NCBI GenBank assembly: GCA_964510945.1
Contig: CAZEED010000001.1
Coordinates: forward strand, 98,774-162,773
Length of the DNA stretch: 64,000 bases
Reading direction: 5' to 3'
Source of the DNA: an uncultured Candidatus Saccharibacteria bacterium
Lineage (GTDB): Bacteria; Patescibacteriota; Saccharimonadia; Saccharimonadales; JAGQNJ01
The position numbers and the translations under genes are program-made. Shown in pieces: positions 9,065 to 61,611 of this stretch (within the stretch, counting starts at the first letter, position 1; every line of letters starts with the position of its first letter). A model generated the notes under the pieces. It was given only the letters and a program-made list of their open reading frames with translations, was not told the DNA's origin and made no database searches.

Positions 9065-12000
9065 CTACAGAGGGTACGTGAAGCTGATACTACTGTATTT
9101 TCCATTTGCCGTTACTGTAGCGGTATAGCTCTTGCCGATTTCTACATCTCTGAGTAGTGATTTACTTGACGTCGAAGAACAACTATTAGGTCCGCTAGTT
9201 TCTTTAAGACAAACTTGGTAGGTTGTGCCAGACGGCAGTGTTGAGCCTGACCACTGAATTTTTACTTTGTCGCTACCTTGGTCGGAAACTGACAGTGAAC
9301 CAACGCTTGATCCGTCAGATGATTCACCGCTAATAGTTGAAGAATCGGTTGCGTCATACAATACGCTATCGATTACTGTTGCTGTCACAGTCCTTGAACC
9401 ATTAAAGTTTGGTTTGTAGTTTTTATATATCACTGTGCCTGGCTTTGTAATAGTGAAAGAACCTCCAGCAATCTGAGAACCGTTAACAGAAAAGGTAACT
9501 TTGCCTTTAAATCTCTCGCTAGACAAAGGATGTGTGCCTTGGCTAATCGTTGCAACTAAATTATAGCTATTAGATCCTTGTTTTTGAACAGACAAGCTAA
9601 TCTTAGGCTTACTGTCGCTACATTTATGTACGTCATCCTGTTGACTCGAACTATTTCCTCCAGCATCGACATAAGTGTCACCCGAGAAACTAGAAGCGTC
9701 GGTTTCGGTAAGAGTTTTCTTAGCTCGCGTTGGTGTACAGCTTGTAGCTATTTTGTTGGATACTATATCAATAGTCTTTTTTGAAGCAGATTTCTTTTTG
9801 TTGTTTTGATACCAACTAGGGAATAGATCTGTTGCTGGGCTTGGCTCTACAGAACCTATACCGACATGTGTTCTAATTACAAAGGCAGGATCTTGTTTTA
9901 CACCCGCTGGTTTTGTCCAATCTTTTGCCTTTTTACCATCGTGAGCTGATTGCATCCATCCTTGCCAAATCGGCTGGGTCATATTCTCCATTGTGCCACT
10001 CATTTCAACTTGTCTAGTGTGATGCCCAACCCACACGCTGGCTGCATATTTAGATGAGTAGCCTGTCATCCACCCGTCTTTTCCGTCGTTAGTCGTTCCG
10101 GTTTTCATGGCAAATTTCCAGCCATTAGGTCCAATCTGAGGTTTTCGTCCAGCTGGGAAGTAACTAGCATTAGGATCAGATAATATGTTGTTAATAATGT
10201 AAGCCGCGTCTGCTTTAACAGCTTGTCTTGATTTACCTTTTTCGTCTCGACTCCAGTCGTATACTGGTTTTGATGTTGAATCTTCAATCTTTAAGATATA
10301 GGTCTGTGGAATCCATTTTCCGTTTCTAGAAAGAGAAGCTTGAGCGTGTACATGTTCGTCGAGTTTAAGAAAAGCTCCATCACCAATCGCTGATGACGCT
10401 CCACATTGGATTTCTTTTGTCAGCGCTTGGTTACCGTAACATTTATAGCCACTCTCTAATCCAAGGTTCTCAGCAGTCTTTATAGTTTTATCAACACCGT
10501 TAATAAGCATTGCTTTTACCGCTGGGACGTTCCTAGAACCACCTAAAGCATAGCGAATTGTTAGTGGTCCCGGATATCGAAAATCGTAATCGTAGAGGCA
10601 GTTACCGCTTCCTCGTGGTGGAGGTAGCCCTTTATTAGTACAATCATAGCCTTCAAGTGGGCCTTGGGTGTCATATAACACTGAGCCAGCCCCAAAATTG
10701 TTCTGGTTATCTATTAGCGATACATAGTCGTATGGTTTAAAGCTTGATCCGGGAGGTAGTTTAGTTTGAGCATAGTTTAGTTGTCCGTATTGCTTATTAG
10801 TAAAATCGTTACCGCCAACTAGTGCTACCATTTGACCTGTTTCTACGTCTTCAGCTGCGATTGCAGCGTTATCTCCACCTTGAGCATAGATTTGACCCAT
10901 ACCTGCGGCAACTTGTTCTTCAGCCTTTTTCTGAAGTCCTAGATCAAGAGAGGTAGTAACTTTCCACCCACCAATGTCGGCAGTTTCTGAAGCAATTTTA
11001 TTCTGGATTTGGTTTTTTGCTGCTAGTACAAACCATGGTGCTTTAATACCAGCAAATTTTGCTTTTCTAGGCTTAACAGTTTTTAGTACATCTACTTTCT
11101 TGGCTTTGTCTCGTTGGGCCGATGTAATCATATTTTGTTCTACCATGAGGTCAAGAATATAGTGTTGTCGATTTAGGAAAGCTTCTTTTTCAAAATCTTG
11201 GCTATACGGTGAATAGTATCTTGGTGACTGTGGAATAGCCGCGAGCATCGCAGATTCTGCAATGGTTAGCTCGTCGGCTGATTTATTAAAGTAATCTCTA
11301 GCTGCGGCTTCAGCCCCATACTCGATTCCACCATAGGGCGCAGTATTTAAATATCCAGCTAATATCTCTTGTTTTGAATAACTTCTCTCTAACTCAACGG
11401 CTAGGATAACTTCTTTTACTTTTCTGCTAACAGTTCTTTCTTGAGTCCAGTTTTGGGTTAACTTAACTAATTGTTGAGTGATAGTTGAACCACCCTGCGT
11501 ACTACCGCCGAAGGCGTTATTCCAAGCGGCTCTAGAAATACCTCTAACATCGAACCCTCCGTGTTTGAAGAAGTCTTTATCTTCTATAGCAACAGTCGCA
11601 TCTTTTAGGTTTTGGGAGATCTTGTCATCTTCTACAGGTATTCTTTTTGCAGCGTCATAATCTTCCCACAGCAGCACTTTACCGCTTCGATCGTAATACT
11701 GAATACTACCGCCTAAATTACTACCAGTAATTGATCGTAAGTCGGGTAGATCTTTACGAAAGTATGCAAACATACCAACCAAAATTAAAAAACCAGCTAT
11801 AAAACCAATACCCATAATTTTTAGGGCCATTATCCCACCTTCACGACTGAACCAGTATTGATAAAGTCTTTTTGGGTGAAGGCGATATACGAATCGCTGT
11901 AGTTTACCTTTAGGCATTCCAGCTAATCGCTCGGCCTTGGACCTTGATTTCTGATCATTTCTAATTTTTAACTTATCAGAGATACTTCGATGAATTTTTA

Positions 12001-12067
12001 CAGTTGCACCACTTCTGGTTGTGAACGTATTTCTTCCGACTCTAGGGCTACGGCGACTTCGTGCCAT
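9065..12067 (-). CDS. Class A penicillin-binding protein (glycosyltransferase GT51 + transpeptidase) with ~300 aa Ser/Thr-rich C-terminal extension
   Basis: GT51 motifs (EDKDFFKHGGFD, GGSTITQQLVK). Transpeptidase region. N-terminal cytoplasmic tail plus TM. C-terminal beta-rich FN3/Ig-like segments. Confidence 0.85.
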   Translation of the reverse strand: MARSRRSPRVGRNTFTTRSGATVKIHRSISDKLKIRNDQKSRSKAERLAGMPKGKLQRFVYRLHPKRLYQYWFSREGGIMALKIMGIGFIAGFLILVGMFAYFRKDLPDLRSITGSNLGGSIQYYDRSGKVLLWEDYDAAKRIPVEDDKISQNLKDATVAIEDKDFFKHGGFDVRGISRAAWNNAFGGSTQGGSTITQQLVKLTQNWTQERTVSRKVKEVILAVELERSYSKQEILAGYLNTAPYGGIEYGAEAAARDYFNKSADELTIAESAMLAAIPQSPRYYSPYSQDFEKEAFLNRQHYILDLMVEQNMITSAQRDKAKKVDVLKTVKPRKAKFAGIKAPWFVLAAKNQIQNKIASETADIGGWKVTTSLDLGLQKKAEEQVAAGMGQIYAQGGDNAAIAAEDVETGQMVALVGGNDFTNKQYGQLNYAQTKLPPGSSFKPYDYVSLIDNQNNFGAGSVLYDTQGPLEGYDCTNKGLPPPRGSGNCLYDYDFRYPGPLTIRYALGGSRNVPAVKAMLINGVDKTIKTAENLGLESGYKCYGNQALTKEIQCGASSAIGDGAFLKLDEHVHAQASLSRNGKWIPQTYILKIEDSTSKPVYDWSRDEKGKSRQAVKADAAYIINNILSDPNASYFPAGRKPQIGPNGWKFAMKTGTTNDGKDGWMTGYSSKYAASVWVGHHTRQVEMSGTMENMTQPIWQGWMQSAHDGKKAKDWTKPAGVKQDPAFVIRTHVGIGSVEPSPATDLFPSWYQNNKKKSASKKTIDIVSNKIATSCTPTRAKKTLTETDASSFSGDTYVDAGGNSSSQQDDVHKCSDSKPKISLSVQKQGSNSYNLVATISQGTHPLSSERFKGKVTFSVNGSQIAGGSFTITKPGTVIYKNYKPNFNGSRTVTATVIDSVLYDATDSSTISGESSDGSSVGSLSVSDQGSDKVKIQWSGSTLPSGTTYQVCLKETSGPNSCSSTSSKSLLRDVEIGKSYTATVTANGKYSSISFTYPL

Positions 12068-37798: not shown

Positions 37799-37990
37799 AT
37801 ACTTTTGTGCCGGCAAAAGTATGGCAAAACCTCGGGCTATCCGTTTGTCTTTACATATCTTCTTGTCAATAATCACAACAGCCTGCGGAACTCATCCGCC
37901 TGCTGGCGGACTCAAACAGTCCTCGGCATTCTAGTTGTGATTTTGACGAAGTTAATCAGGACAAGCCGGAGGCCCAAACAACATCATCGA
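37799..37990 (+). ncRNA. Structured RNA-like element, copy 1 (5' module only), homologous to 53015-53220
   Basis: Shared hairpin ATACTTTTG-loop-CAAAAGTAT. Conserved blocks CTCGGGCT, ACAACAGYCTGCGGAACTC, ACAGTCCTCG. One hairpin kept by compensatory change (tccgcc/ggcgga here, ccccgcacc/ggtgcgggg in copy 2). Confidence 0.35.
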
Positions 37991-50697: not shown

Positions 50698-51645
50698 GTG
50701 AGCAGTCAAATGTCAAAATCAATTTATACACCAGGAGTAGTCACCGTAGACGACCATAGCAAAACAAGTGCAACGTTCGTCATTGAACCACTTCATACTG
50801 GATATGGTATGACTCTAGGGAATAGCCTTCGTCGAGTACTGTTATCTAGTATTTCAGGAGCATCTATCACAGCATTTAAAATTGAAGGTGTAACTCATGA
50901 ATTCACCGGAGTTCCAGGTATCAAAGAAGATGCTGTTGATATCATGCAGAACCTCAAAGGCGTCAATTTCAAAGTATTTAGTGAAGAGCCTCAGACGTTA
51001 AGGATCGTGAAAAAAGGTAGCGGGACAGTTACCGCAAAAGATATTGAAGTTAACGCAGATGTCGAAATTGTCAATCCTAAGCACGTTATATGCACGATTG
51101 ACGATTCTAAAGGTTCTTTTGTTGCCGACATAGTTGTCGAAACAGGTAGAGGCTACCGTCCAATCGAAGAAGGGGCACTACGAAAACCAAGTGATATGAT
51201 CGCAATTGATGCAATCTTTGGACCAGTACAGAGGGTTCGATATAAAGTTGAGCATACTCGTGTTGGCCAAATGACTGACCTAGACAAGCTAATAATTGAT
51301 GTAGACACTGACGGTTCTATATCTCCAAGCGATGCGTTTGAAGAAGCGGCTGCTATTTTAGTTAATCAATATACTGCTCTAGCTGGCCAGACTCGTGTTA
51401 AAGCGGCAGCACCAATTACTGCTGAGCCAGAAGTTGAAAACGCAGTTGAAGAACAAACAGAACTAATGACCCCAATCGAAGACCTCAACCTATCAGCCCG
51501 AACAACCAACGCACTTGTAAATAATGATATCCATACCTTAAAAGACCTATTTAGTCTTAGCGACATTGAATTACGAGAGCTAAAAGGCTTTGGATCAAAA
51601 GCACTAGATGAAGTGAAAGATAAAATGGCGGAACTGGAGCTGTAA
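50698..51645 (+). CDS. rpoA: DNA-directed RNA polymerase subunit alpha
   Basis: Alpha NTD dimerisation region and CTD (NLSARTTNAL). Confidence 0.93.
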   Translation: MSSQMSKSIYTPGVVTVDDHSKTSATFVIEPLHTGYGMTLGNSLRRVLLSSISGASITAFKIEGVTHEFTGVPGIKEDAVDIMQNLKGVNFKVFSEEPQTLRIVKKGSGTVTAKDIEVNADVEIVNPKHVICTIDDSKGSFVADIVVETGRGYRPIEEGALRKPSDMIAIDAIFGPVQRVRYKVEHTRVGQMTDLDKLIIDVDTDGSISPSDAFEEAAAILVNQYTALAGQTRVKAAAPITAEPEVENAVEEQTELMTPIEDLNLSARTTNALVNNDIHTLKDLFSLSDIELRELKGFGSKALDEVKDKMAELEL

Positions 51646-51646
51646 T

Positions 51647-52132
51647 ATGCATCGACACGGATATCAGGGAAGAAAGTTTGGCAGAGAGCGCGATCAGCGT
51701 AAATCTCTTATTAAGTCATTGGCTGATTCTTTGATTATCCATGAATCGATTGAAACAACCCTAGAGAAAGCTAAAGAAGTTAATCCGTACGTAGAAAAGC
51801 TAATAACCAAGGCAAAAAAAGGCGGGTTAGCTAATCGACGATACATTATTGCGCACCTTCAGACCAAAGAAGCATCACACAAGCTTGTTGATGGTATTGC
51901 ACCCCAACTAACCGGCCGAACCAGCGGACACCTTAGGATTGTAAAAACTACTTCTAGGCGTGGCGATAATGCCCAACTTGCTAGAATTAGTTTTGTTGAC
52001 GAACTTAAGCAGATTACTGCCGAAGAGTCTGCAAAAAAATCTTTAAGTAAACCAAGTGAGACATCACAAACGAAAAAAGTCGCTACAAAAATGACAGTAG
52101 CAAAAAAACCAGTTAAGGCGGAGAAAAAATAG
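51647..52132 (+). CDS. rplQ: 50S ribosomal protein L17 with Lys-rich C-terminal extension
   Basis: L17 core plus K/A-rich tail. Confidence 0.9.
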   Translation: MHRHGYQGRKFGRERDQRKSLIKSLADSLIIHESIETTLEKAKEVNPYVEKLITKAKKGGLANRRYIIAHLQTKEASHKLVDGIAPQLTGRTSGHLRIVKTTSRRGDNAQLARISFVDELKQITAEESAKKSLSKPSETSQTKKVATKMTVAKKPVKAEKK

Positions 52133-52573
52133 ATGAAAACTTATAGTGCCAAAAATACCGATGTAGAACGCAAATGGTGGCTGGTTGATGCTTCTGATTT
52201 AACTTTAGGTAGATTATCAACTGTTATTGCGACAAAACTCACAGGCAAAGATAAACCTATATTTAGCCCTCACGTTGATTGTGGCGACTATGTAGTAGTA
52301 ATAAACTCAGATAAATTAGTAGTTACTGGCGATAAACTTAACAAAAAGACTTATTATCGACATAGTGGCTTCCCTGGAAATCTTAAAGAGTCTAGCCTTC
52401 AAGAGCAAATCGATAAGGATTCGAGAAACGTAATTATATACTCGGTACGCGGAATGCTACCTAAAAACAAGTTACAAGACCCTAGAATAAAACGATTAAA
52501 AGTGTACGCTGGACCTGAGCACGATAACACCGCACAACAGCCAACAACGCTAAATCTTAAGGAAGGTAAATAA
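52133..52573 (+). CDS. rplM: 50S ribosomal protein L13
   Basis: L13 family sequence. Confidence 0.93.
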   Translation: MKTYSAKNTDVERKWWLVDASDLTLGRLSTVIATKLTGKDKPIFSPHVDCGDYVVVINSDKLVVTGDKLNKKTYYRHSGFPGNLKESSLQEQIDKDSRNVIIYSVRGMLPKNKLQDPRIKRLKVYAGPEHDNTAQQPTTLNLKEGK

Positions 52574-52974
52574 TGGCTATAAAAAACGCATATTTCTATG
52601 GTTTAGGACGAAGAAAAAGTGCCTCAGCACGAGTCAGGATTTCGGGCGGTAGCGGAAAATTCATTATCAATGATCACACAGCTGAAGATTATTTCGCTAA
52701 TAGTAAAAATTTGCTAAATGAACTAACAAAACCATTTACTGCGGTTGATCTAGTTAATAAGTTTGATGTTAGCGTTAAAGTTATTGGTGGAGGACACAGT
52801 GGACAAGCTGATGCCATTATCCTAGGTATTTCAAAAGCACTTGCAGTTATGAACGAAGATCTTAGAAGCACATTGCGTCGTGCAGACCTACTCGGTCGCG
52901 ATCCAAGAGAGAAAGAACGTAAGAAGTTCGGACTCAAGGGCGCTCGTAAACAAAGACAGTTCACAAAACGATAA
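52573..52974 (+). CDS. rpsI: 30S ribosomal protein S9
   Basis: S9 family with the GGGxxGQ motif. ATGA overlap with rplM. Confidence 0.93.
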   Translation: MAIKNAYFYGLGRRKSASARVRISGGSGKFIINDHTAEDYFANSKNLLNELTKPFTAVDLVNKFDVSVKVIGGGHSGQADAIILGISKALAVMNEDLRSTLRRADLLGRDPREKERKKFGLKGARKQRQFTKR

Positions 52975-53014
52975 TTTTCAAATTTTTGAGTAAAATAACA
53001 TTTTCGCAGTTTCA

Positions 53015-53392
53015 ATACTTTTGACCGCCAAAAGTATGACAAAAGCTCGGGCTTAACGTTTTTTCTTGACTAACTCACTAGTCAAGACAAACAACAGTCT
53101 GCGGAACTCCCCCGCACCTATTGCTTAGACAAAAGGTGCGGGGTCAGACAGTCCTCGCCTGATAGTTGTTTGTTTGACCTGAGTCATCAGGAAAAAGCCG
53201 ATGCCCAACACAAAAAACAACCCCGCAACGTTAGTCTGGTCGTTGGCCAGATAAACGATGAGTATTACATATTGTTGGCATCCGGCTTGTCCTGAATAAC
53301 TTCGTTAAAGTAACAACAAAAAAGGCGAGGACTGTTTGAAGTTAGTAGTATGCCTGAGTGGCATATTACTAACAAGTTTCGCAGTCTGTTGT
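53015..53392 (+). ncRNA. Structured RNA-like element, copy 2 (full length ~380 nt) with nested long-range helices
   Basis: 5' module homologous to 37799-37990. 16-bp helix 53145-53160/53323-53338. 13-bp helix 53091-53103/53380-53392. Local hairpins 53015-53037, 53067-53088, 53110-53143, 53344-53368. No ORF. Confidence 0.35.
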
Positions 53393-53657
53393 TATCTTTA
53401 ACTAGAAGTTATATAAAGACAAACGAAAAGCCAAGAGTTTTGTATTACTTTGGCGATACAAAGTAATAGTTTTTGAATTATATTTACAAAATTTCTGACA
53501 TGATTGATAATACTTGACAAATTATATATGAAGCTGTATTGTCTTATGGTTATGTTTCAAAACATTATAAACAACACAACTTATTGGTTTACCTCCAAAT
53601 ATTCATGGCGGCAAACTTCGTATTGTCTATAAAATAACAAACTATCAAGAAATATTA

Positions 53658-53680
53658 ACCGCCACCAAGGCGGTTTTTTA
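53658..53680 (+). terminator. Rho-independent terminator (accgcc/ggcggt + T6) upstream of the GC-richer cassette
   Basis: 6-bp GC stem, 5-nt loop, T-tract. Lies 20 nt before the ATG at 53700. Confidence 0.6.
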
Positions 53681-53699
53681 ATAGTAAAGGAGAATAATC

Positions 53700-53960
53700 A
53701 TGATAAGACCAGAGCATAATCCAGAGAGAGTAACGGCAGGTCTACCGGACCAGATAGAATCAATCCCGAGTAGATTGCTAATTGCTCTAGATCAAGGAGT
53801 AATTAAAGAATCAGATTTAGTACCAAATATTGCAGCGACTATAAGCAGTAATCATAGGCCCGAAGTTGACCCACCATTAAATATTCATGAACAAGTAGAA
53901 CGAACCAGACACATAAATCAATTAGCAGCTAGCTGCGTAGAACAATTTTCAAAACAATAA
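53700..53960 (+). CDS. Hypothetical protein (86 aa), first gene of the cassette
   Basis: Strong RBS AAAGGAGAA. No recognisable motifs. Confidence 0.45.
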   Translation: MIRPEHNPERVTAGLPDQIESIPSRLLIALDQGVIKESDLVPNIAATISSNHRPEVDPPLNIHEQVERTRHINQLAASCVEQFSKQ

Positions 53961-54025
53961 GATTTAAGGAGAAAATATCATGCAAACTATAACAACAGAA
54001 CAATTACATACAGCAACTGAAGCAC

Positions 54026-56200
54026 TTGAACGACGGGGGTTGGTTTGGCTCGCCTGAAATTGCAGCCATACGCTTAAGAGGATATCCGTACGAGCAAGTT
54101 ATCGACGGAGAACCTCACGACAGTACAGATACTTTAAATGGCTTTGCACGTAACGAGAGCTATGAAAACAATCTTGCCCTAAAGCTAGCTGAGCACGAAC
54201 CAGACCTAGAACCACTGCGAGAACTCGGATTTCATGGACTAGATGCCAAGGTGAAAAGCCCTGGTGCCCTAACCTATGAAGAGGCTTTTAGCCTAGCGAC
54301 CTTCGTATGCCTAACAAGCAACAGAGAGCTACACAAGGCTTTTGAGCCTGAGCTAGCAGGTATTGGTGAGCCGGAAACTTTGCGTCTTCAGGCGGTTTCA
54401 TTGCTTCAAGGCATGTCAACTCGTGAGAGCCTGATCGGTTTTGAACCACAGGAAATTGCTGGAATGGTAGCCGCTACTTTAGAGCTAGATACCGTGGCTC
54501 GAGTAGCATCCCCTAGCGAAACCCCGACATTCATTGTTGGCGGTATGGGCGGTGATAGGGGTATACCCTCTCACGGGGAGCAGTCAAAACTATTTAGTAC
54601 CTCTACGCTTGCTTCAATAGCATTGGCTGGACTCGTGGCTGTTCATAAGCATCACTCTTACCCCAATACATCCAAAGCAGCTGGCCAATCAGCTATAGAA
54701 GCTTTGGGCGCAAGATCCGATATGGAGGATGCCGCAACTATGGAACTGGCACTAGGCATATCTGGAATGCTTATGACGAGTTGTCATAGCGTAAGAACCC
54801 TGCACACCATATCCCATATTCTTAAGGGAGAAACAGTCAATCACGCTATCGGGCCTTTGGCGGTTCCGCATGCCAGCAGCGATAAAGTTAACGCTCTAGT
54901 TGGCGTGAACCATAATGTTCACCCGACAACAATCATTGAAACCTTGCGTGTACTACAGACTAAAGGTATCCAAGACTACGGTAATAGCGTAGCGTTTTGT
55001 GGAGTTACTGCTCCGGTTGAAGAGCTCCCTGCTGAGATCTTAGACCCTAAAGCTTACTATGCTGCTCCTGATCTAAAGGAGTTAATCATGCTGGATGAAG
55101 TAGCGCCACCACCATTTGTAACGATGGCATCATTCTTAGTTGATGGCCAATCAAGTGGACCGTATTTAATCGAACCAATTGACTTCATGGAAGCCGAAGA
55201 GGCAGAAGCTATGTCATCAGATGGATTGCTGATTCCAAATACCCTGGAAGACATCATGACAGCCAATAATGCGGTCATCCAGGCCCAGGATCATATGAAG
55301 ACAAAGTACGTGGCGATGACCGTTGCTTTGGCCAACTTCGCGAGAGATTATGCGCATCTGCCTGACGCACTTGATGTGGATGCTCGTACTGTGAACAGAG
55401 CCTATCTTCGAGCATGTTTTAGAGCTGCTGTAGAAAATATGAGCGATGGGTCTATGGAGAACACAACAAGACTCTACGGCGAAGCAACGCAGAAAGACAT
55501 GCTTCCAAACATAGATGTGGTGGTCTTGGATATCGATAACACCTTGATTCGCCCTAAAAACCAAGACTTCTACGAACAATACTCAGAAGCTGTAAACTTG
55601 GCCATTGCTAACTATCTTGGCGTTAACCTAGAAGAAGCTACAAAAGTTGCGGACTTTTTCAGGGAAAACTTTGGTGGTGGCGAACAAGCCTTGTTTTCAG
55701 GAGCTGTTGGGGATTACTTTCCACAATACGGGAATCCTAGCCCTGACTTCGAGCTGCTTTACGATGCTATGTCCCAGATCAAGATTGATGGTCAATTTGG
55801 TGATGATGGCTTGAGTGCCAAGCTAGTTAAATTACTACGAGCCAAAGGCAAGAAAGTTGTAGCTATGACCGATTCGCCTGAAAGTCTATCGAGGCAGACA
55901 CTAAAAGCATGCGGCTTCGACCCAGATTCTGATTTTGACCTGTACGTTCCCTACACCAAAGAATCCGGTCCCCCGAAAATCGTGCAGGCCGATGAGGCTT
56001 TCAAGAGCATCGCTGACTATTTCGAGGTAGATCCTAATAGAGTGCTGAGTGTGGGTGATAGTCTAACAAGAGATATTGTACCAGCAGAAAGGTCTGGTAT
56101 GAAAACGTGCCTTGTCTCTCAGTACGATGTGCCTGGATACGAAGGCCTACAAGTAACTAATCTTGCGGATACATTCCGCACATATAGGAGAAGTTTATGA
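54026..56200 (+). CDS. Fusion protein: glycosyltransferase family 3 (TrpD-like phosphoribosyltransferase/nucleoside phosphorylase fold) N-terminal and middle part + HAD-superfamily hydrolase C-terminal part
   Basis: TrpD-like blocks (GGMGGD, VHKHHSYPNTSKAAGQSAIEALG, NHAIGPL, MLDEVAPP). HAD motifs I (LDIDNTL) and IV (VGDSLTRD). Likely true start is ATG 53980 (AAGGAG RBS) joined by a +1 shift at the G5 run 54035-54039. Confidence 0.7.
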   Translation: MNDGGWFGSPEIAAIRLRGYPYEQVIDGEPHDSTDTLNGFARNESYENNLALKLAEHEPDLEPLRELGFHGLDAKVKSPGALTYEEAFSLATFVCLTSNRELHKAFEPELAGIGEPETLRLQAVSLLQGMSTRESLIGFEPQEIAGMVAATLELDTVARVASPSETPTFIVGGMGGDRGIPSHGEQSKLFSTSTLASIALAGLVAVHKHHSYPNTSKAAGQSAIEALGARSDMEDAATMELALGISGMLMTSCHSVRTLHTISHILKGETVNHAIGPLAVPHASSDKVNALVGVNHNVHPTTIIETLRVLQTKGIQDYGNSVAFCGVTAPVEELPAEILDPKAYYAAPDLKELIMLDEVAPPPFVTMASFLVDGQSSGPYLIEPIDFMEAEEAEAMSSDGLLIPNTLEDIMTANNAVIQAQDHMKTKYVAMTVALANFARDYAHLPDALDVDARTVNRAYLRACFRAAVENMSDGSMENTTRLYGEATQKDMLPNIDVVVLDIDNTLIRPKNQDFYEQYSEAVNLAIANYLGVNLEEATKVADFFRENFGGGEQALFSGAVGDYFPQYGNPSPDFELLYDAMSQIKIDGQFGDDGLSAKLVKLLRAKGKKVVAMTDSPESLSRQTLKACGFDPDSDFDLYVPYTKESGPPKIVQADEAFKSIADYFEVDPNRVLSVGDSLTRDIVPAERSGMKTCLVSQYDVPGYEGLQVTNLADTFRTYRRSL

Positions 56201-57060
56201 GTAACCCAGAAATTATCTATGAAGTTGGCGAAGGTAACCCTATCGTCGTCATCAACACAGGAACACATGGCAACGAATATCAACCAGTAGAAGCAGCTAA
56301 TCAGTTTGCGGAAAATTTTGACGGATCCGAGTTAGTAACGGGGACAGTAAGACTTATTGTCTCAAACCCCCCTGCCTTGGAGCAGAATAAAAGATTCTTA
56401 GACGAAGACTTAAATAGAGCTTTTCCTGGTGATCCATCTTCCCCAAGTCGAGAGGCAAGATTAGCCTCTCAAGTACTTGGGTTAGTTGATGATGCGGATT
56501 TTGTAGTTGATCTGCACACTGCTCCAGACGGACCACCTTTTACAATTTTGGGCTCAAGGGATAGATCAAGACTTGATCTTGCTGAGCTTGCGCCGGTTCA
56601 GGATATTGTTCTATTTGAAGCTACTGAACCATGCGCAATGGTTGATTTTACTAAGTGTGGTATAGGCATTGAGATAGGAGCTCACACGGACGAACAGTCA
56701 ACGCAAGAAGGGGTTTCAATTATCGAAGCATACCTCGAGCGATTAGGCCTAACTCCTTCGACCCTAACAGGTGGCCGTAAATACGCTTACTCAAGACGAG
56801 GCTTAGGCGATCTGTTCCCACATCAATACCATGAAGTATTTTCGCGCTTAACCAGAGCAGACATACCCGAAGATGCTATAGCACAACTCAAGAATCTTGA
56901 GCCAATAGATAGTGCAACACTGGGTTTGAACCTAGAGGAGCCCGTTGTTCATCCTGTGCTATGTGGCGACAAAGATTACTCTCCCGTCTTCTGCTACTTA
57001 GCTAAACCGGTGGATAGAGAAAGTCTGGGAGGAAGGAAACGATACAATGCTTATTTTTGA
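56197..57060 (+). CDS. Succinylglutamate desuccinylase/aspartoacylase (AstE/AspA) family zinc amidohydrolase
   Basis: Family hallmark GTHGNE near the N-terminus. Downstream DLH..P motif. ATGA overlap with the upstream gene. Confidence 0.72.
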   Translation: MSNPEIIYEVGEGNPIVVINTGTHGNEYQPVEAANQFAENFDGSELVTGTVRLIVSNPPALEQNKRFLDEDLNRAFPGDPSSPSREARLASQVLGLVDDADFVVDLHTAPDGPPFTILGSRDRSRLDLAELAPVQDIVLFEATEPCAMVDFTKCGIGIEIGAHTDEQSTQEGVSIIEAYLERLGLTPSTLTGGRKYAYSRRGLGDLFPHQYHEVFSRLTRADIPEDAIAQLKNLEPIDSATLGLNLEEPVVHPVLCGDKDYSPVFCYLAKPVDRESLGGRKRYNAYF

Positions 57061-57958
57061 TACTGACGCTGGGCATGACGATGTCTTAGCGATGCTGATG
57101 TTACTCAAGTCCAAACAGTTCGATGTGTTGGGCATAACTACGGTTGCCGGTAATTCAACGCTTGAAAATGCTACCCGTAATACCGCGTTTGCGCTTGATC
57201 TGTTAGGAAGACGCGATATTCCTATTTTTTCAGGCGCAGCTAAACCTCTCAAGAGACAGCTCGTCCAAGCGGTTGTTCACGGACATAGTGGTCTTGATGG
57301 TGCCGATACATCTAGAACTAGCTATACACTCACCAATAATGCTGTCAATAAGCTTATCGAGCTAGTTCGAGCTCACCCTTACGAAGTAACAATCCTGACA
57401 CTGGGGCCACTAACCAATATTGCAAAAGCATTCGAGGCTGACCCAGATCTTCCGACGCTTGTTAAGGGACTGGTCATTATGGGCGGTGTTGTTGATGGCG
57501 TTGGTAACAAAAACCGTGTCGCCGAGTTCAATATATTCGTTGACCCAGAAGCTGCCCATATCGTGTTTAGTGCAAATGTGAAAAAAACGCTCATTCCGTT
57601 TGATATATGTAGAGACATTGTTTTCCCGCTGAAAGACTTCGACAAGCTCAAAGGAACAAGCCTGCATAAGCCTGTTAAGAAAATGATGAAACCATTCATA
57701 TCTGGACTTAAGGCCGAAGAGGGAATCAACGGGGCGCTATTGCCTGATCCTATAGCAGCCTACTACCTATTAAACCCAAGAGTCTACACTATAAAACCAA
57801 TGGATATAGTCGTCGAAACATCTGGTAAGCATACTTCAGGAATGACAGTCATTGAAAAAAGAAAGAACAAACCACAAAAATATAATATAGAAGTAGCAAC
57901 AAGAATTATCGAAAATAAATTTAAACAACATTTCTTTAAGCTACTGAGGAAAGCCTAG
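57047..57958 (+). CDS. Inosine-uridine preferring nucleoside hydrolase family protein
   Basis: N-terminal DTDAGHDD aspartate cluster typical of IU-NH. Overlaps the previous gene by 14 nt. Confidence 0.8.
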   Translation: MLIFDTDAGHDDVLAMLMLLKSKQFDVLGITTVAGNSTLENATRNTAFALDLLGRRDIPIFSGAAKPLKRQLVQAVVHGHSGLDGADTSRTSYTLTNNAVNKLIELVRAHPYEVTILTLGPLTNIAKAFEADPDLPTLVKGLVIMGGVVDGVGNKNRVAEFNIFVDPEAAHIVFSANVKKTLIPFDICRDIVFPLKDFDKLKGTSLHKPVKKMMKPFISGLKAEEGINGALLPDPIAAYYLLNPRVYTIKPMDIVVETSGKHTSGMTVIEKRKNKPQKYNIEVATRIIENKFKQHFFKLLRKA

Positions 57959-58002
57959 AAGTTAATAACTAGGACGTAAATAATATATAATAGGAGAAAG
58001 TT

Positions 58003-59055
58003 ATGAGCAAACCACTTCAACAAGTTCAGGACAAGCCAGTAATTTTGACAGGCCTTCGGGCAAATAACGACTTGCACCTCGGTAGCTACCTAGGGGCGAT
58101 GTTACCTATGGCGCAGATGCAAAAGAAATATGGAGAAACCTATCAGTTGAATATGTTTATCCCTGACTTGCACAGTTTTACTACGCCTATCGACCACAGT
58201 AAGCTATACGAGCAATCAATACATAATCTAAAGTTATTTACAGCATCAGGACTAGATATAACTCATCCTGATACATATATATACCGTCAGAGTCGAGTAT
58301 CCGCCCATAGCGAATTAACCGTAATTTTGAACTGTTTTACCTATATGGGCGAGCTTCAGAGGATGACTCAGTTTAAAGAAAAGAGTGCGAAATCAGATTC
58401 CGTTTCTGTTGGACTTTTTGACTATCCGGTTCTTATGGCAGCGGATATTTTGCTTTACGGTGCAAAATACGTTCCGGTAGGGGCCGACCAGACGCAGCAC
58501 GTAGAACTAGCTCGAGATATTGCAATTCGCATGAACAACAAGTTCAACCGAGAATTATTTGTACTGCCAGAGGCCGAGAAAGATCAAATTGCCTTTGCGA
58601 CTCAAGACGAAAGATTACGCGTCAGGGATTTGCTTGATCCTTCTAAAAAAATGAGCAAATCTGACGAAACAGGTAAAGGAGTGATTTTCTTAGGTGATAG
58701 CCCTGAGACAGGTGCAAAAAAGATTATGAGCGCCACGACTGATAGTCTAGGTGAGATTAACTATGATTTTAATAAGCAACCAGGAATTAGTAATCTACTA
58801 GATATCTTAAGTGCACTTACCGATACACCAATAAAAGACACTGTCGCAAAATACAAAGGCCAAACACAATACGGCCCGCTAAAACAAGATGTTGCAGAAG
58901 CTGTAAAAAACTTCTTAACAAATTTCCAAACAAAATTAACGCAAGTTGATGAAAAAGCACTAATGGATAAGCTAGAAGAGTCAGAAAAAGCCATGAACAT
59001 AGTCGCAAACCAAACCCTACACAAAGTCCAAGAAGCCGTCGGTCTCCGTATTTAG
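58003..59055 (+). CDS. trpS: Tryptophan--tRNA ligase
   Basis: Class I HIGH-like motif (NDLHLGSYLG) and KMSKS. TrpS size. Confidence 0.88.
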   Translation: MSKPLQQVQDKPVILTGLRANNDLHLGSYLGAMLPMAQMQKKYGETYQLNMFIPDLHSFTTPIDHSKLYEQSIHNLKLFTASGLDITHPDTYIYRQSRVSAHSELTVILNCFTYMGELQRMTQFKEKSAKSDSVSVGLFDYPVLMAADILLYGAKYVPVGADQTQHVELARDIAIRMNNKFNRELFVLPEAEKDQIAFATQDERLRVRDLLDPSKKMSKSDETGKGVIFLGDSPETGAKKIMSATTDSLGEINYDFNKQPGISNLLDILSALTDTPIKDTVAKYKGQTQYGPLKQDVAEAVKNFLTNFQTKLTQVDEKALMDKLEESEKAMNIVANQTLHKVQEAVGLRI

Positions 59056-59056
59056 T

Positions 59057-59917
59057 ATGCAGAAAATCATAGTTGATCAGAATGAGAATACACGGCTTGA
59101 TTTGTTTTTAGTCTCAAAAATCCCCGAATTAAGTAGAAGTTCTATCGCAAAACTAATTAACGACGAAAAAGTATTAGTTAATAAAAAACCTTGTTCTAGT
59201 AAATATAAAACAAAGCTAGATGATGAAATAACTGTATATTTTGATCCTAGAGATTTGGATGAAATTCCAACAATCGATCTACCGATTTTGTATGAGGACG
59301 AAAACTGCGTTGTTATTGATAAGCCCTCGGGCATTTTAACGCATAGTAAAGGTGCATTTAATCCTGAGGCAACTGTAGCGACTTTTATCAGAGAAAAGAT
59401 AACGGATATAGACAGCGAACGGGCAGGTATTGTGCATCGACTAGATAGAGGCACTTCAGGTGTAATTATTTGCGCAAAAAACCAAAAGTCACTGGATTAC
59501 CTGCAAAAGCAATTTGCCGAGAGAAAAACAGTCAAAAAATATATCGCAATTATCGAAGGAGAGATTACCCCGAGCGAAGCCGTAATTGATATGCCGATTG
59601 CCAGAGATGTTAAAAATCCCAAAGCATTCTGTGTGAAAACAAGTGGTAAAAATGCAGTCACCAGCTATAAGGTACTAAAACAACACAATAACTATTCAAT
59701 GCTAAAACTAACCCCAAAAACCGGCAGAACTCATCAATTAAGAGTCCATTTATCACACCAAAAGCACCCAATTGTTGGCGACGACCTCTACGGCGGCAAG
59801 CCATTTAATAGAATTCTGCTTCATGCAAAAGACTTAACAATAAACTTGCCGGAAGGAAAAACAACGACTTTTGAGTCCAAACTGCCGTCCGAATTTACAG
59901 ATATAATGGATATATGA
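59057..59917 (+). CDS. RluA-family 23S rRNA pseudouridine synthase (RluD-like) with N-terminal S4 domain
   Basis: Catalytic HRLDRGTSG motif. S4-like N-terminus. Confidence 0.85.
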   Translation: MQKIIVDQNENTRLDLFLVSKIPELSRSSIAKLINDEKVLVNKKPCSSKYKTKLDDEITVYFDPRDLDEIPTIDLPILYEDENCVVIDKPSGILTHSKGAFNPEATVATFIREKITDIDSERAGIVHRLDRGTSGVIICAKNQKSLDYLQKQFAERKTVKKYIAIIEGEITPSEAVIDMPIARDVKNPKAFCVKTSGKNAVTSYKVLKQHNNYSMLKLTPKTGRTHQLRVHLSHQKHPIVGDDLYGGKPFNRILLHAKDLTINLPEGKTTTFESKLPSEFTDIMDI

Positions 59918-60765
59918 CGCAACCTCTAGTAAATCCTCGCACCAAAAATCAAGTTGATGATTTTATTAAAAATCCGTCACACGCTCTAATTATTTCTGGT
60001 CCTGACGGCTCAGGAAAAAATCAATTAACTGAATATATTTCACTGTCTATCCTCGAAACGTCTGATATAAATACTTATCCGTACTTACACAAAATCATGC
60101 CAATTGATAACAAACTTGGTATAGAACAAGTTAGAGAACTGCAAGAACTAACTAAACTTAAAATCCCTAGCAATAAAAGAATCTCTAGAATTGTAATAAT
60201 TGAAAAAGCAGATATTTTGGGTGACGAAGCCCAAAATGCACTGCTAAAAACATTAGAAGAGCCTCCAAAAGACACAATACTAATCTTAATTGTTAATGAT
60301 CAAAATAATCTACTGGGTACTGTAAGCTCAAGAGCAGTAACAATAGAGCTTTTACCTCCCACCAAAGATCAACTTTTAAAGCACTTTACTAATAAAGGTT
60401 TCGACAATACACAGGTTGAACGAGCGATCTTACTGGGATCTAACAGGCCGGAAATCATTAGCGACATACTAGAAAAGAATGAATCTAAATTCGAGAAATC
60501 AATATCTAAAGCAAAAGATATTCTGTCAAACAGTGAGTTTGATAGATTAGTTAAAATTAACGAACTGTCAAAAGACAAACAAGTTTCATCCGAGATTATA
60601 GATTCGCTAATACTAATTGCCCGATCAGCGATGAAGTCAGCAGCAAAACCGGAGCAAGTTAAACGCTGGCATAAGATACTTAAAAATGCTGATAAGGCAA
60701 AACAAATGATGGCCAAAAATGGCAATACCAAAATTATACTAACTGACTTGTTCTTGAACCTATAG
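59914..60765 (+). CDS. holB: DNA polymerase III delta' subunit
   Basis: AAA+-like P-loop GPDGSGK. LKTLEEPP and SRA(V)T sensor motifs typical of delta'. Confidence 0.7.
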   Translation: MTQPLVNPRTKNQVDDFIKNPSHALIISGPDGSGKNQLTEYISLSILETSDINTYPYLHKIMPIDNKLGIEQVRELQELTKLKIPSNKRISRIVIIEKADILGDEAQNALLKTLEEPPKDTILILIVNDQNNLLGTVSSRAVTIELLPPTKDQLLKHFTNKGFDNTQVERAILLGSNRPEIISDILEKNESKFEKSISKAKDILSNSEFDRLVKINELSKDKQVSSEIIDSLILIARSAMKSAAKPEQVKRWHKILKNADKAKQMMAKNGNTKIILTDLFLNL

Positions 60766-60780
60766 TATAATCATGTACAG

Positions 60781-61437
60781 ATGTTAGAACTATTATTTGT
60801 TATAGGATTTGGAGTTATCGCTTATCGGAGCGCTACAATTCGAGACGAGGATTTATCACCACTTCCGCGAAAACTTAGCGACAAACTAGGTCAATTATGG
60901 GGCATAGCCCACCAAGGGATGAAAGATAATAGCCTAATTCGGGCAGAAAAAGCCTTATTGACTATCCTTAAAATTGATAAAAAGAACGCTGCTGCCTATA
61001 ACCGTCTAGGAATCTTGTATGCAAAACAAAAAGAATACAAAGACGCCATAGATTGTTTTGAAATTGCTTCGAGCATCGAAGTTAGCCCGTCTAGTTTGCA
61101 CAACCTAGGTTTGATTTATTACGAAACAGAAAATTATGAAAAAGCCGCGACTGCGTTTGAGCAAGCTTTAAAACTTGAAGATAATCTTGCGGCAAGACAC
61201 GTAGCATACGCAAAAGTCCAAGAAAAATTAGGCAATAATAAACTCATGTTTGCAGAGCTAGAAAAGGCCGTAGAATTAGAGCCTACAAAAGAATCATTAA
61301 AATATCTTCATCAGGCTTATGAAAATAACGATATGCACGAACAAGCAAAAAGTATTCGTCGAAGACTAGACCGCGCGACCGTATCAAAAACAAAACCAAA
61401 AAAGCTTATTCGTCCAAAACGCAGAGTTGTTATTTAA
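60781..61437 (+). CDS. TPR-repeat protein with N-terminal TM anchor
   Basis: N-terminal hydrophobic helix followed by 3-4 TPR-like repeats. Confidence 0.6.
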   Translation: MLELLFVIGFGVIAYRSATIRDEDLSPLPRKLSDKLGQLWGIAHQGMKDNSLIRAEKALLTILKIDKKNAAAYNRLGILYAKQKEYKDAIDCFEIASSIEVSPSSLHNLGLIYYETENYEKAATAFEQALKLEDNLAARHVAYAKVQEKLGNNKLMFAELEKAVELEPTKESLKYLHQAYENNDMHEQAKSIRRRLDRATVSKTKPKKLIRPKRRVVI

Positions 61438-61611
61438 CCCCTGTTCTGATAAAATTTACAGGTACTTTTCGCTGTTTTAACCTAGCTTTTCAACCTAACG
61501 ATTCGATTTATTCGGCTCGAGCGATTGAAAGGCTAAGAAAAAGAAGCGACTAGAGATTGAAGGCAAATATTCGTAGAATGTTAGCGGAAAGTCGACCGTC
61601 GGTTCTGACGA

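Follow-up and report, generated by a model that had tools for sequence, protein, structure and literature searches.

A putative +1 frameshift site with a tryptophan codon opens an apparently acquired operon upstream of trpS in a Saccharibacteria genome: a candidate tryptophan sensor

RESULTS

Genes and signals of the cassette upstream of trpS

The DNA analyzed here, referred to as the window, is a 64,000-nucleotide stretch from an uncultured Candidatus Saccharibacteria bacterium (assembly GCA_964510945.1, contig CAZEED010000001.1, positions 98,774 to 162,773, forward strand). Immediately 5' of trpS, the gene for tryptophan--tRNA ligase (TrpRS), it carries a cassette of overlapping genes, the first of which encodes a TrpD-fold phosphoribosyltransferase-like protein fused to a HAD phosphatase. 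As described below, this enzyme appears to be reached through a +1 change of reading frame at a tryptophan codon. The relevant features, in window coordinates, are as follows.

53966 to 53971, + strand: Shine-Dalgarno sequence AAGGAG, 8 nt 5' of the ATG at 53980 (read from the sequence)
53980 to 54057, + strand: upstream open reading frame (ORF) in frame 0, 25 codons, MQTITTEQLHTATEALERRGLVWLA then a stop; proposed translation start of the enzyme
53986 to 58032, + strand: probable horizontally acquired segment (upstream ORF, fusion gene, AstE-like gene, IU hydrolase gene), from blastn against the relative L078
54026 to 56200, + strand: 724-amino-acid (aa) ORF with a TTG start, as called in the ORF list
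54035 to 54049, + strand: putative +1 frameshift site, GGGGG-UUG (spacer)-GUU (P site)-UGG (A site, Trp)-C, from an alignment of 16 sequences
54047 to 55510, + strand: TrpD-fold phosphoribosyltransferase-like domain, in the +1 frame
55511 to 56200, + strand: HAD phosphatase domain, fused C-terminally (PF00702; motif I DIDNT, motif IV GDSLTRD)
56197 to 57060, + strand: AstE/AspA-family zinc deacylase-like protein, 287 aa (PF24827)
57047 to 57958, + strand: IU-type nucleoside N-ribohydrolase, 303 aa (PF01156)
58003 to 59055, + strand: trpS, resident tryptophan--tRNA ligase gene, directly 3' of the insertion (TIGR00233)

An earlier sequence-only reading of this stretch had recognized the ORFs, with an ATGA overlap at 56197 and a 14-nt overlap at 57047, and had named HAD, AstE/AspA, and IU nucleoside hydrolase domains with trpS just downstream. 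The overlaps match the ORF coordinates, and the domains were borne out by Pfam searches. The HAD domain matched PF00702 at 44.8 bits (cutoff, 26.4) over residues 496 to 691 of the large protein. The AstE-like protein matched AstE_AspA_cat (PF24827) at 84.6 bits (cutoff, 25) and has the HxxE zinc motif as GTHGNE, and the IU hydrolase matched PF01156 at 292.6 bits over profile positions 1 to 297, with the DxDxxxDD calcium motif present as DTDAGHDD. The identity of trpS was confirmed with TIGR00233 of NCBIfam (287.7 bits). In NCBIfam, no equivalog cutoff was reached by the HAD domain, by the AstE-like protein (aspartoacylase, 69 bits against a cutoff of 180), or, for RihA, RihB, and RihC, by the IU hydrolase, whose best solved relative is RihA (E value of 1e-51).

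The same reading had reported a rise in guanine-plus-cytosine (GC) content to 48 to 55% from about 38%. A window scan showed the rise to be real but smaller, with 0.44 to 0.50 in the cassette and 0.33 to 0.43 in the flanks (500-nt windows). Gene by gene, the fusion stands at 0.471 (z of 3.2; third codon positions, 0.42, z of 3.0), the AstE-like gene at 0.449, and the IU hydrolase gene at 0.424, compared with 0.396 ± 0.024 for the other genes of the window.

A change of reading frame at the start of the enzyme

The TTG that opens the 724-aa ORF has no Shine-Dalgarno site. The ATG at 53980, which lies in another frame, does have one, and an equivalent ATG and Shine-Dalgarno sequence are found in most of the frameshift-type sequences among the relatives (designated here by L numbers), for example L034, L019, L024, L025, and L036. 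The sequence-only reading had described a protein of 724 or more residues; the ORF exists as called, but its true start would be this ATG. The L034 protein is 67% identical to that of the window and shares with it the ATG, the Shine-Dalgarno sequence, about 20 codons, and the sequence CGGGGGUURGUUUGGCU. In both, the ATG frame stops a few codons further on, and the enzyme runs on in the +1 frame. Homologous upstream ORFs ending in G-[LVYC]-[LV]-W and a stop were found in 15 other sequences, so that the alignment of the site comprises 16 sequences in two clades, one with the HAD fusion (the window, L034, L001, L003, L010, L011, L035, L036, L037, and L040) and one linked to a BtpA-family gene (L019, L021, L023, L024, L025, and L027). 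L026 is a variant in which the frames are split without the exact motif.

Across the alignment, GGG is invariant at positions -6 to -4, a G occupies position -7 in 14 of the 16 sequences, the spacer is exactly 3 nt, and [G/C]UU-UGG is invariant, followed by C in 14 of 16. Frame 0 stops one or two codons past the UGG in 8 of the 10 fusion-clade sequences. Stops close the enzyme frame upstream; in seven sequences one of them, a TAG, immediately precedes UUU GGC, and the next canonical start of the frame is 19 to 67 codons downstream. Because of this TAG, the conserved segment FG[SD][DE]IA.I.L.G.PY cannot be reached there by ordinary initiation. The segment that needs the shift lies within the folded part of the structural model, with a predicted local distance difference test score (pLDDT) of >90.

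The pattern of substitutions changes at the same point. Directly 3' of the site, substitutions fall mainly on third codon positions of the +1 frame: by position, the counts are 244/178/501 for the fusion clade and 61/64/117 for the second clade. No codon-phase preference was found 5' of the site. The p value for this phase switch, 8e-42, is nominal, since homologue pairs lack independence. In 885 kb, GGG-NNN-[CG]TT-TGG matched 38 times, against 7.3 matches expected from shuffles; 16 of the 38 are the annotated sites, and about eight more are duplicate copies of these. The sole tryptophan of the 724-aa ORF call lies 5' of the junction and hence outside the predicted product. An assembly error at the run of Gs (54035 to 54039) was considered and ruled out by the same frame split in the 15 other sequences. 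The window does not contain prfB, with which the site might have been compared.

Taken over the family, these data make it likely that the frame switch is real and is needed for the full-length enzyme. For the window itself we consider the same conclusion probable but somewhat less secure, because a TTG start is possible there.

Association of the family with tryptophan

We gathered 61 distinct loci carrying the TrpD-like gene as DNA, with 10 kb on either side, and sorted the neighboring genes by phmmer. A TrpRS gene, genuine by TIGR00233, lies within this range in 35 of the 61 loci. Six loci have a gene for tRNA-Trp(CCA) close to the cluster, although the same protein is carried by two of them, and TrpR-family genes (PF01371; E value of about 1e-17) adjoin it in 18, including those of the window's closest relatives, L034 and L010.

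In about 30 loci, a T-box leader stands directly 5' of the TrpD-like gene. The T-box core (seven specified bases, GGUGGNAC) lies just upstream on the coding strand, within CAAGGUGGCAC...CCCUUG, and overlaps the terminator CCCUUG...CAAGGG-UUUUU. The leaders have an F-box (CCGUUA), an AGUA box, Stems II and III, and a UGGN bulge in an antiterminator that competes with the terminator. The loop of their 5' hairpin contains an invariant GAA-UGG-purine, with UGG as the specifier in all 17 leaders inspected, and 34 of 50 predicted pairs show compensatory changes. The bulge is mostly UGGC, with UGGU in L018, L023, and L024; both tRNA-Trp with G73 and tRNA-Trp with A73 have been reported in Microgenomates (PMC5370408), and the two bulges would pair with G73 or A73, UGGU matching A73. 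In L005, L007, L012, L014, L018, and L028, for example, the T-box precedes the TrpD-like gene even though trpS is on the opposite strand.

At its gathering threshold, the Rfam model RF00230 missed every T-box in 18 loci; the leaders were found by motif and alignment and then at a permissive threshold. RF00230 aligned to the relatives' leader end to end (model positions 1 to 219; E value of 5.7e-9) but scored 44.7 bits against a gathering threshold of 93, because 6 nt take the place of 72 distal positions of Stem I. Leaders of this type, with a very short Stem I and the specifier in its terminal hairpin loop, occur in L012 (3097 to 3343), L005 (6725 to 6970), L028 (2483 to 2722), and about 27 further loci. 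They nevertheless have classical terminators, whereas the short-Stem-I T-boxes described in Actinobacteria are mainly translational (PMC7583486).

The proteins themselves are nearly devoid of tryptophan. Counted from the start of their conserved core, the 61 TrpD-like proteins together have 11 tryptophans in 31,493 residues (0.035%), about 30-fold fewer than the 1.07% of neighboring ORFs, and 56 of the 61 have none. Tryptophan is likewise absent from 8 of 10 IU hydrolases and from the AstE-like protein, IU hydrolase, and TrpRS of the window. Five independent observations (TrpRS, tRNA-Trp, TrpR, T-boxes, and tryptophan-free proteins) thus link the family to tryptophan, and the cassette very probably belongs to a tryptophan-responsive module restricted to candidate-phyla bacteria.

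Similar neighborhoods were described by Mukai et al. in 2017, who reported tRNA-Trp(A73)/ORF1/TrpRS-A operons with a trp repressor in Microgenomates and likewise inferred tryptophan limitation from tryptophan-free synthetases (PMC5370408). Neither the TrpD-like gene and its partners nor T-boxes ahead of it nor a frameshift is mentioned in their paper, and the string "phosphoribosyl" occurs in it 0 times. A protein of about 340 aa beside TrpRS, labeled unk332 here and assumed from its position rather than its sequence to be their ORF1, is rich in tryptophan (4 to 12 residues), which conflicts with their report that ORF1 is tryptophan-free in their set (PMC5370408).

Variant TrpRS genes were observed at some loci. 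In L008 (Blackburnbacteria), two TrpRS paralogues above the TIGR00233 cutoff (4417 to 5415 and 10955 to 12016) flank a TrpD-like/BtpA pair; one is paired with unk332, and a separate editing-domain gene follows TrpRS at 5415 to 5900. In some Microgenomates, namely L024 (12294 to 14153, 619 aa) and L021 (12291 to 13685, 464 aa), TrpRS is fused to a YbaK-type editing domain, a tRNA-binding domain, or both. An editing domain on TrpRS is unusual and hints at a problem with a near-cognate amino acid.

Horizontal insertion of the cassette

The insertion was examined against L078, a syntenic metagenome-assembled genome (MAG) labeled Candidatus Saccharibacteria. By blastn, window and L078 are about 80% identical over positions 51004 to 52974, 53508 to 53985, and 58033 to 61470, and 53986 to 58032 has no match in L078. 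The backbone order is the same in both (rplQ, rplM, rpsI, an 86-aa ORF, further genes, trpS, rluD, and holB), and the TrpRS and RpsI proteins are 91.5% and 93% identical. At the insertion site, L078 has about 1.4 kb of unrelated ORFs and an AstE-like gene only 20% identical to that of the window. Since L078 shares the flanks without 53986 to 58032, the cassette was evidently inserted or swapped in 5' of the resident trpS. On Microgenomates-type contigs, L034 and L010 among them, lie the closest homologues of the fusion, in the same gene order; the P0012 contig also has this order. Horizontal acquisition, which the earlier reading had proposed, is therefore very likely. In 12 related loci the GC content of the cluster is not above that of its flanks.

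The unrelated ORFs of L078 include two overlapping small ones of 70 and 158 aa (9281 to 9932), the second of which contains QRQGIAT, similar to the signature of GNAT acetyltransferases; the two may represent a single gene with a frameshift. Between them and trpS, directly 5' of the latter, is the divergent AstE-like gene (237 aa).

The TrpD-like enzyme

An alignment-based AlphaFold2 model of residues 1 to 495 had a pLDDT of 93.3, and a Foldseek search of the PDB with it returned anthranilate phosphoribosyltransferases as all of the top 50 matches. The domain is thus predicted to have the TrpD fold, with an N-terminal helical bundle and an alpha/beta domain. The window protein does not reach the gathering score of PF00591 (Glycos_transf_3), with 16.9 to 17.9 bits against 27; this profile matches 70 of 91 family members at an E value of ≤0.01, the best being 4e-8. 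Residue conservation was read from these 91 sequences by HMMER alignment. GGMGGD (172 to 177), S193-T194, K208, and D357-E358 are invariant and align to motifs of TrpD. We take these motifs (GGMGGD, the S-T pair, the Lys of KHGN, and D-E) to bind 5-phosphoribosyl-1-pyrophosphate (PRPP) and metal, as they do in TrpD structures. The TrpD-family/HAD fusion seen in the sequence-only reading is supported by the predicted fold, these motifs, and the HAD domain.

The protein differs from TrpD where anthranilate is bound. The anthranilate-binding Asn of KHGN and the carboxylate Arg are replaced by invariant Ser211 and Ser263, KHGN being KHHS and FN being N272-H273 in this family. H254, H260, H264, and H299 are also invariant, and C253 is nearly so. 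Because the anthranilate-binding residues are replaced by other invariant ones, the protein was not filed as a TrpD orthologue. It is only 14 to 25% identical to TrpD, longer by about 120 residues at the N terminus and about 100 at the C terminus, encoded outside trp biosynthesis operons, and, in the window, fused to a phosphatase. TrpD2/YbiB and the adenosine monophosphate (AMP) and thymidine phosphorylases are clearly farther away than TrpD, with no match at an E value of ≤1 in sequence and profile searches.

The regulation of this module is well supported; the chemistry, including reaction direction, substrate, and physiological product, is what we infer. A PRPP-dependent ribosylation followed by dephosphorylation has about an even chance of being correct. 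The acceptor is most likely an aromatic amine or N-heterocycle other than anthranilate, the 5'-phosphate then being removed by the fused HAD domain. Literature searches for a connection of TrpD-like genes to BtpA, to nucleoside hydrolases, or to candidate phyla yielded nothing.

The family and its partner genes

Searches among 1.84 billion proteins gave 118 representatives of the TrpD-like family at an E value of ≤0.001. Most are standalone proteins of about 490 to 500 aa from Woese-, Gottesman-, Roizman-, Collier-, and Blackburnbacteria. The phosphatase partner is fused in the window's clade; elsewhere it is a separate adjoining HAD gene (L006, L020, L022, L029, and others) or a low-molecular-weight phosphatase. 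The fusion of the window therefore joins two genes that adjoin each other in other genomes.

An IU hydrolase gene is near the TrpD-like gene in 24 of the 61 loci, mostly straight after it or after the HAD gene, and a BtpA-family TIM barrel is present in about 33. Strict alternation of the two was considered and rejected, since both occur together in L049 and L070. The nearest solved relatives of BtpA by sequence are orotidine monophosphate (OMP) decarboxylases, although the match is weak (E value of about 0.003), which hints that BtpA may be an enzyme acting on the phosphoribosylated product. The AstE-like gene, which the sequence-only reading had counted as a cassette member, is one in the window but is an optional accessory in the family (about 11 of 61 loci); about four loci have an M20 amidohydrolase instead. 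The recurrence of deacylases from two unrelated families suggests an N-acylated precursor. Alternatively, the deacylase could free an aromatic amino acid directly from its N-acyl form; mammalian aminoacylase-3, of the AspA family, favors N-acetyl aromatic amino acids. Partner genes are retained even in relatives about 31% identical to the window protein.

A distant member, L033 (5484 to 13458), has genes for an aminotransferase, the TrpD-like protein, an M20 amidohydrolase, BtpA, a class-Ib aminoacyl-tRNA synthetase, a pyridoxal phosphate-dependent decarboxylase of the aromatic type, and an 86-aa ORF, with a 5-enolpyruvylshikimate-3-phosphate (EPSP) synthase gene nearby. Of all the contexts, this one may offer the most clues to the pathway.

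The resident trpS leader region

Upstream of the cassette lies a leader region with the following features.

53514 to 53542, + strand: promoter-like site of the resident leader, TTGACA-17-TATTGT (consensus scan)
53546 to 53632, + strand: resident leader ORF, 28 codons with two UGG codons (read from the sequence)
53657 to 53682, + strand: intrinsic-terminator hairpin (53657 to 53675) and U-run, the end of the resident leader
53700 to 53960, + strand: 86-aa ORF, a resident gene (ORF list)

The leader (53514 to 53682; L078, 8810 to 8990) is 93% identical between the window and L078, compared with about 80% for the flanking genes. The 28-codon ORF is kept in L078 and L079, the sole change being an in-frame 3-nt indel (27 codons in L078), and differences in the terminator of L078 are confined to the loop. 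The region folds more stably than shuffled sequence (z of -2.8), and by eye GGCGG at 53607 to 53611 can pair with the 5' arm of the terminator, CCGCC. The Rfam model Trp_leader (RF00513) scored 18.4 bits on 53546 to 53682, against a gathering threshold of 41 (E value of 0.89). It is plausible but unproven, on the evidence of two independent sequences, that the ORF and terminator form a leader-peptide attenuator of the resident trpS operon.

The 86-aa ORF has no match in Pfam or NCBIfam; its only relatives, 87% and 71% identical, are at the same position in L078 and L079. A decayed Trp repressor was considered and rejected, the resemblance being limited to a 13-residue match (E value of 0.01 to 0.03 in a 1.2-kb search) with 12 to 21% identity when aligned; BLASTP gave no alignment to the TrpR of the closest relative, L034. 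Because the terminator and the 86-aa ORF both belong to the conserved resident leader region, they fall outside the acquired cassette. The sequence-only reading had correctly seen a terminator at 53658, where the hairpin and T-run are present, and a coupled operon, but that terminator is part of the conserved leader and does not bound the cassette, and the small ORF is a resident gene conserved in Saccharibacteria relatives rather than a cassette member.

Between rpsI and the leader, window-specific noncoding DNA at 52975 to 53507 (core, 53085 to 53400) has a predicted long-range fold of high stability, -159 kcal/mol over 316 nt. A second copy, partial and rearranged with 71 to 78% identity, lies about 15 kb upstream at 37799 to 37984. 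The stretch is absent from the syntenic site of L078 and has no Rfam match; a small mobile element and a structured RNA of an undescribed type are both conceivable.

DISCUSSION

The observations on the anatomy of the locus, its insertion, its conserved context with regulatory RNA and protein partners, the tryptophan-free composition of its products, and the frame switch can be drawn together as follows. A three-gene operon would have passed from a Microgenomates-type donor into a Saccharibacteria-type genome, directly 5' of the resident trpS, as a module switched on by tryptophan shortage. Translation would begin at the ATG at 53980, in the 25-codon upstream ORF. When Trp-tRNA(Trp) is scarce, the ribosome would wait at the UGG of the site at 54035 to 54049, shift by +1, read GGC, and continue into a tryptophan-free frame of 717 codons, giving a product of 22 + 717 = 739 aa, likewise without tryptophan. 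With ample Trp-tRNA, the UGG would be decoded, frame 0 would stop two codons on, and no enzyme would be made. The TrpD-fold enzyme would then phosphoribosylate an aromatic amine or N-heterocycle, the HAD domain would strip the 5'-phosphate, the IU-type N-ribohydrolase would cleave a riboside, and the AspA-type deacylase would deacylate either a precursor or an N-acyl aromatic amino acid. Most likely, the module as a whole would salvage or convert a tryptophan-related precursor during tryptophan starvation; that it supplies tryptophan is a tentative proposal.

We put the probability of this reading as a whole, an acquired tryptophan-starvation operon whose first enzyme is gated by a +1 frameshift, at roughly 0.55. 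The same figure applies to its central element, in which the site would be a natural amino acid sensor, with a "hungry" UGG reporting Trp-tRNA(Trp) and gating a tryptophan-free enzyme of an undescribed PRPP-dependent pathway, conserved in at least two clades and layered on T-box or TrpR control. By analogy with the systems considered next, the shift may well be tuned by the supply of Trp-tRNA, somewhat more probably than not. The sequence-only reading had judged that no described pathway matches the cassette, and this judgment is sound, as literature searches gave none; the link to tryptophan, treated there as incidental, is our main result.

The closest known parallel is the prfB site, AGGGGG, 3 nt, CUU-UGA-C (PMC12421855). 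Both sites have a short frame-0 ORF, a Shine-Dalgarno-like G-run, a 3-nt spacer, an NUU-U slippery run, a slow A-site codon followed by C, an early frame-0 stop, and a functional protein in the +1 frame. The likeness is greatest in L023 and L024, with GGGG-UAU-CUU-UGG-C against AGGGGG-UAU-CUU-UGA-C. They differ in that the A-site UGA of prfB senses release factor 2 (RF2) whereas the UGG of the cassette would sense Trp-tRNA(Trp), in the P-site codon (CUU in prfB; GUU in 10 of the 16 cassette sequences, including the window), and in the product, which in prfB is the factor that reads the codon but here is a metabolic enzyme. The Ty1 site CUU-AGG-C and the starvation frameshifting studied by Gallant in Escherichia coli likewise involve a +1 shift with CUU in the P site while a sense codon in the A site is decoded slowly (PMC5009743). 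Ty1, however, relies on a constitutively rare tRNA and gives a fixed product ratio, and the E. coli cases are experimental or adventitious; unlike either, the cassette site would be a physiological amino acid sensor. In their 2016 review, Atkins et al. considered starvation-specific trans-frame proteins made by hungry-codon frameshifting and stated that "no examples are known" (PMC5009743), and we found none in bacteria in later literature. T-boxes, TrpR, and trp leader attenuation respond to the same signal, tryptophan or charged tRNA-Trp, and the first two precede the operon in relatives of the cassette. Leader-peptide attenuation and the proposed switch both read ribosome speed at tryptophan codons; the switch, however, would decide within translation by a change of frame, whereas the T-box, TrpR, and attenuation act by transcription termination or repression.

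Several observations weigh against this interpretation. The upstream ORF peptide is not conserved 5' of the site. No stop interrupts the enzyme frame across the site in four sequences (the window, L001, L027, and L040), and in the window an ordinary start at the TTG at 54026 is possible. The P-site codon of the window is GUU rather than CUU, and tRNA-Val re-pairs on UUU less well than the tRNA-Leu of prfB. The window also lacks both TrpR and a T-box; a standard T-box was rejected there, with no Rfam match at the gathering or the permissive threshold and none to a profile of the relatives' leaders. Run in series, transfer of the phosphoribosyl group, dephosphorylation, and hydrolysis of the N-ribosidic bond would amount to a futile cycle from PRPP to ribose, unless the base is modified in its ribosylated state or the steps do not follow one another directly. 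Finally, the replacement or accompaniment of the IU hydrolase by BtpA in many loci is unexplained.

A reading with no programmed frameshift would attribute the split frames to homopolymer errors or pseudogenes, a G-run being prone to sequencing error, or to a regulatory upstream ORF with a separate start for the enzyme, through re-initiation or a non-canonical codon. The TTG at 54026 is in the enzyme frame of the window, and the ending of frame 0 one or two codons past the UGG in most of the fusion clade fits termination and re-initiation. We nevertheless consider this unlikely, since both clades, 16 independent assemblies in all, show the same layout with G-runs of 3 to 5, the +1 frame comes under purifying selection right at the site, and the enzyme frame has no ATG, GTG, or TTG near the frame-0 stop; in the seven sequences with the TAG, a start at the next canonical codon would cut off a conserved and well-modeled N-terminal segment. 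Very improbable, in our view, is an ordinary nucleoside or nucleotide salvage cassette without any tryptophan connection, started at TTG 54026 and adjacent to trpS by accident. IU hydrolase and HAD nucleotidase-like domains are typical of salvage, candidate-phyla bacteria rely on scavenged nucleosides, and L032 and L004 have the trio without a TrpRS gene nearby. A general nucleoside-scavenging rationale, as advanced in the sequence-only reading, does not, however, account for UGG-specifier T-boxes that precede the TrpD-like gene also when trpS lies on the opposite strand, for the adjoining TrpR genes, for the tryptophan depletion of the proteins, or for a UGG inside the frameshift site, and the tryptophan linkage, which extends to TrpRS and tRNA-Trp, holds down to about 31% identity.

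The remaining alternatives concern the chemistry. The TrpD-like domain could run in reverse, as a nucleotide phosphorylase or pyrophosphorylase like the archaeal AMP phosphorylase, breaking down nucleotides for carbon, ribose, or PRPP, with tryptophan charging as a general starvation signal. This, too, has a low probability: structure and motifs are far nearer to TrpD than to the phosphorylases, the phosphate motif KHSTGG typical of the latter is absent, and three tryptophan-specific sensors, the BtpA barrel, and the deacylases would be left unexplained. Slightly better placed, though still doubtful, is a non-canonical route to tryptophan or indole, in which a host-derived anthranilate-like precursor would be phosphoribosylated, BtpA would serve for steps of the TrpF/TrpC type, and the HAD domain and IU hydrolase would recycle or trim intermediates. 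Genes under Trp T-boxes or TrpR elsewhere nearly always serve tryptophan synthesis, uptake, or charging (PMC7583486), the closest fold is TrpD, BtpA, a barrel of the phosphoribosyl-binding type, has OMP decarboxylases as its nearest solved relatives by sequence, and genes for chorismate mutase, EPSP synthase, an aminotransferase, and an aromatic-type decarboxylase occur in some neighborhoods. Against it, Ser211 and Ser263 stand where TrpD has its anthranilate-binding Asn and Arg, no trpA, trpB, trpC, or trpF was seen within 10 kb of any locus, and the version in the window lacks BtpA, a single barrel that is in any case unlikely to stand in for three enzymes.

The machinery invoked by the tryptophan-gated frameshift (a prfB-type site, T-boxes, and a TrpD fold) is of known kinds; the use made of it is new. 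If the proposal is true, this would be the first natural amino acid-sensing +1 frameshift, the hungry-codon effect having been known for decades from starvation experiments, and the locus, which uses the prfB signal, the best understood in bacterial frameshifting, with the stop codon exchanged for a tryptophan codon, is a concrete, compact, and readily testable candidate. Its insertion into a Saccharibacteria trpS operon would be a clear case of a regulated module moving between candidate phyla. The candidate-phyla carriers are thought to be amino acid auxotrophs living on hosts and to lack tryptophan biosynthesis. The enzyme module appears unique to candidate-phyla bacteria and is placed under three independent tryptophan sensors, and its chemistry could show how these organisms cope with a shortage of the scarcest amino acid.

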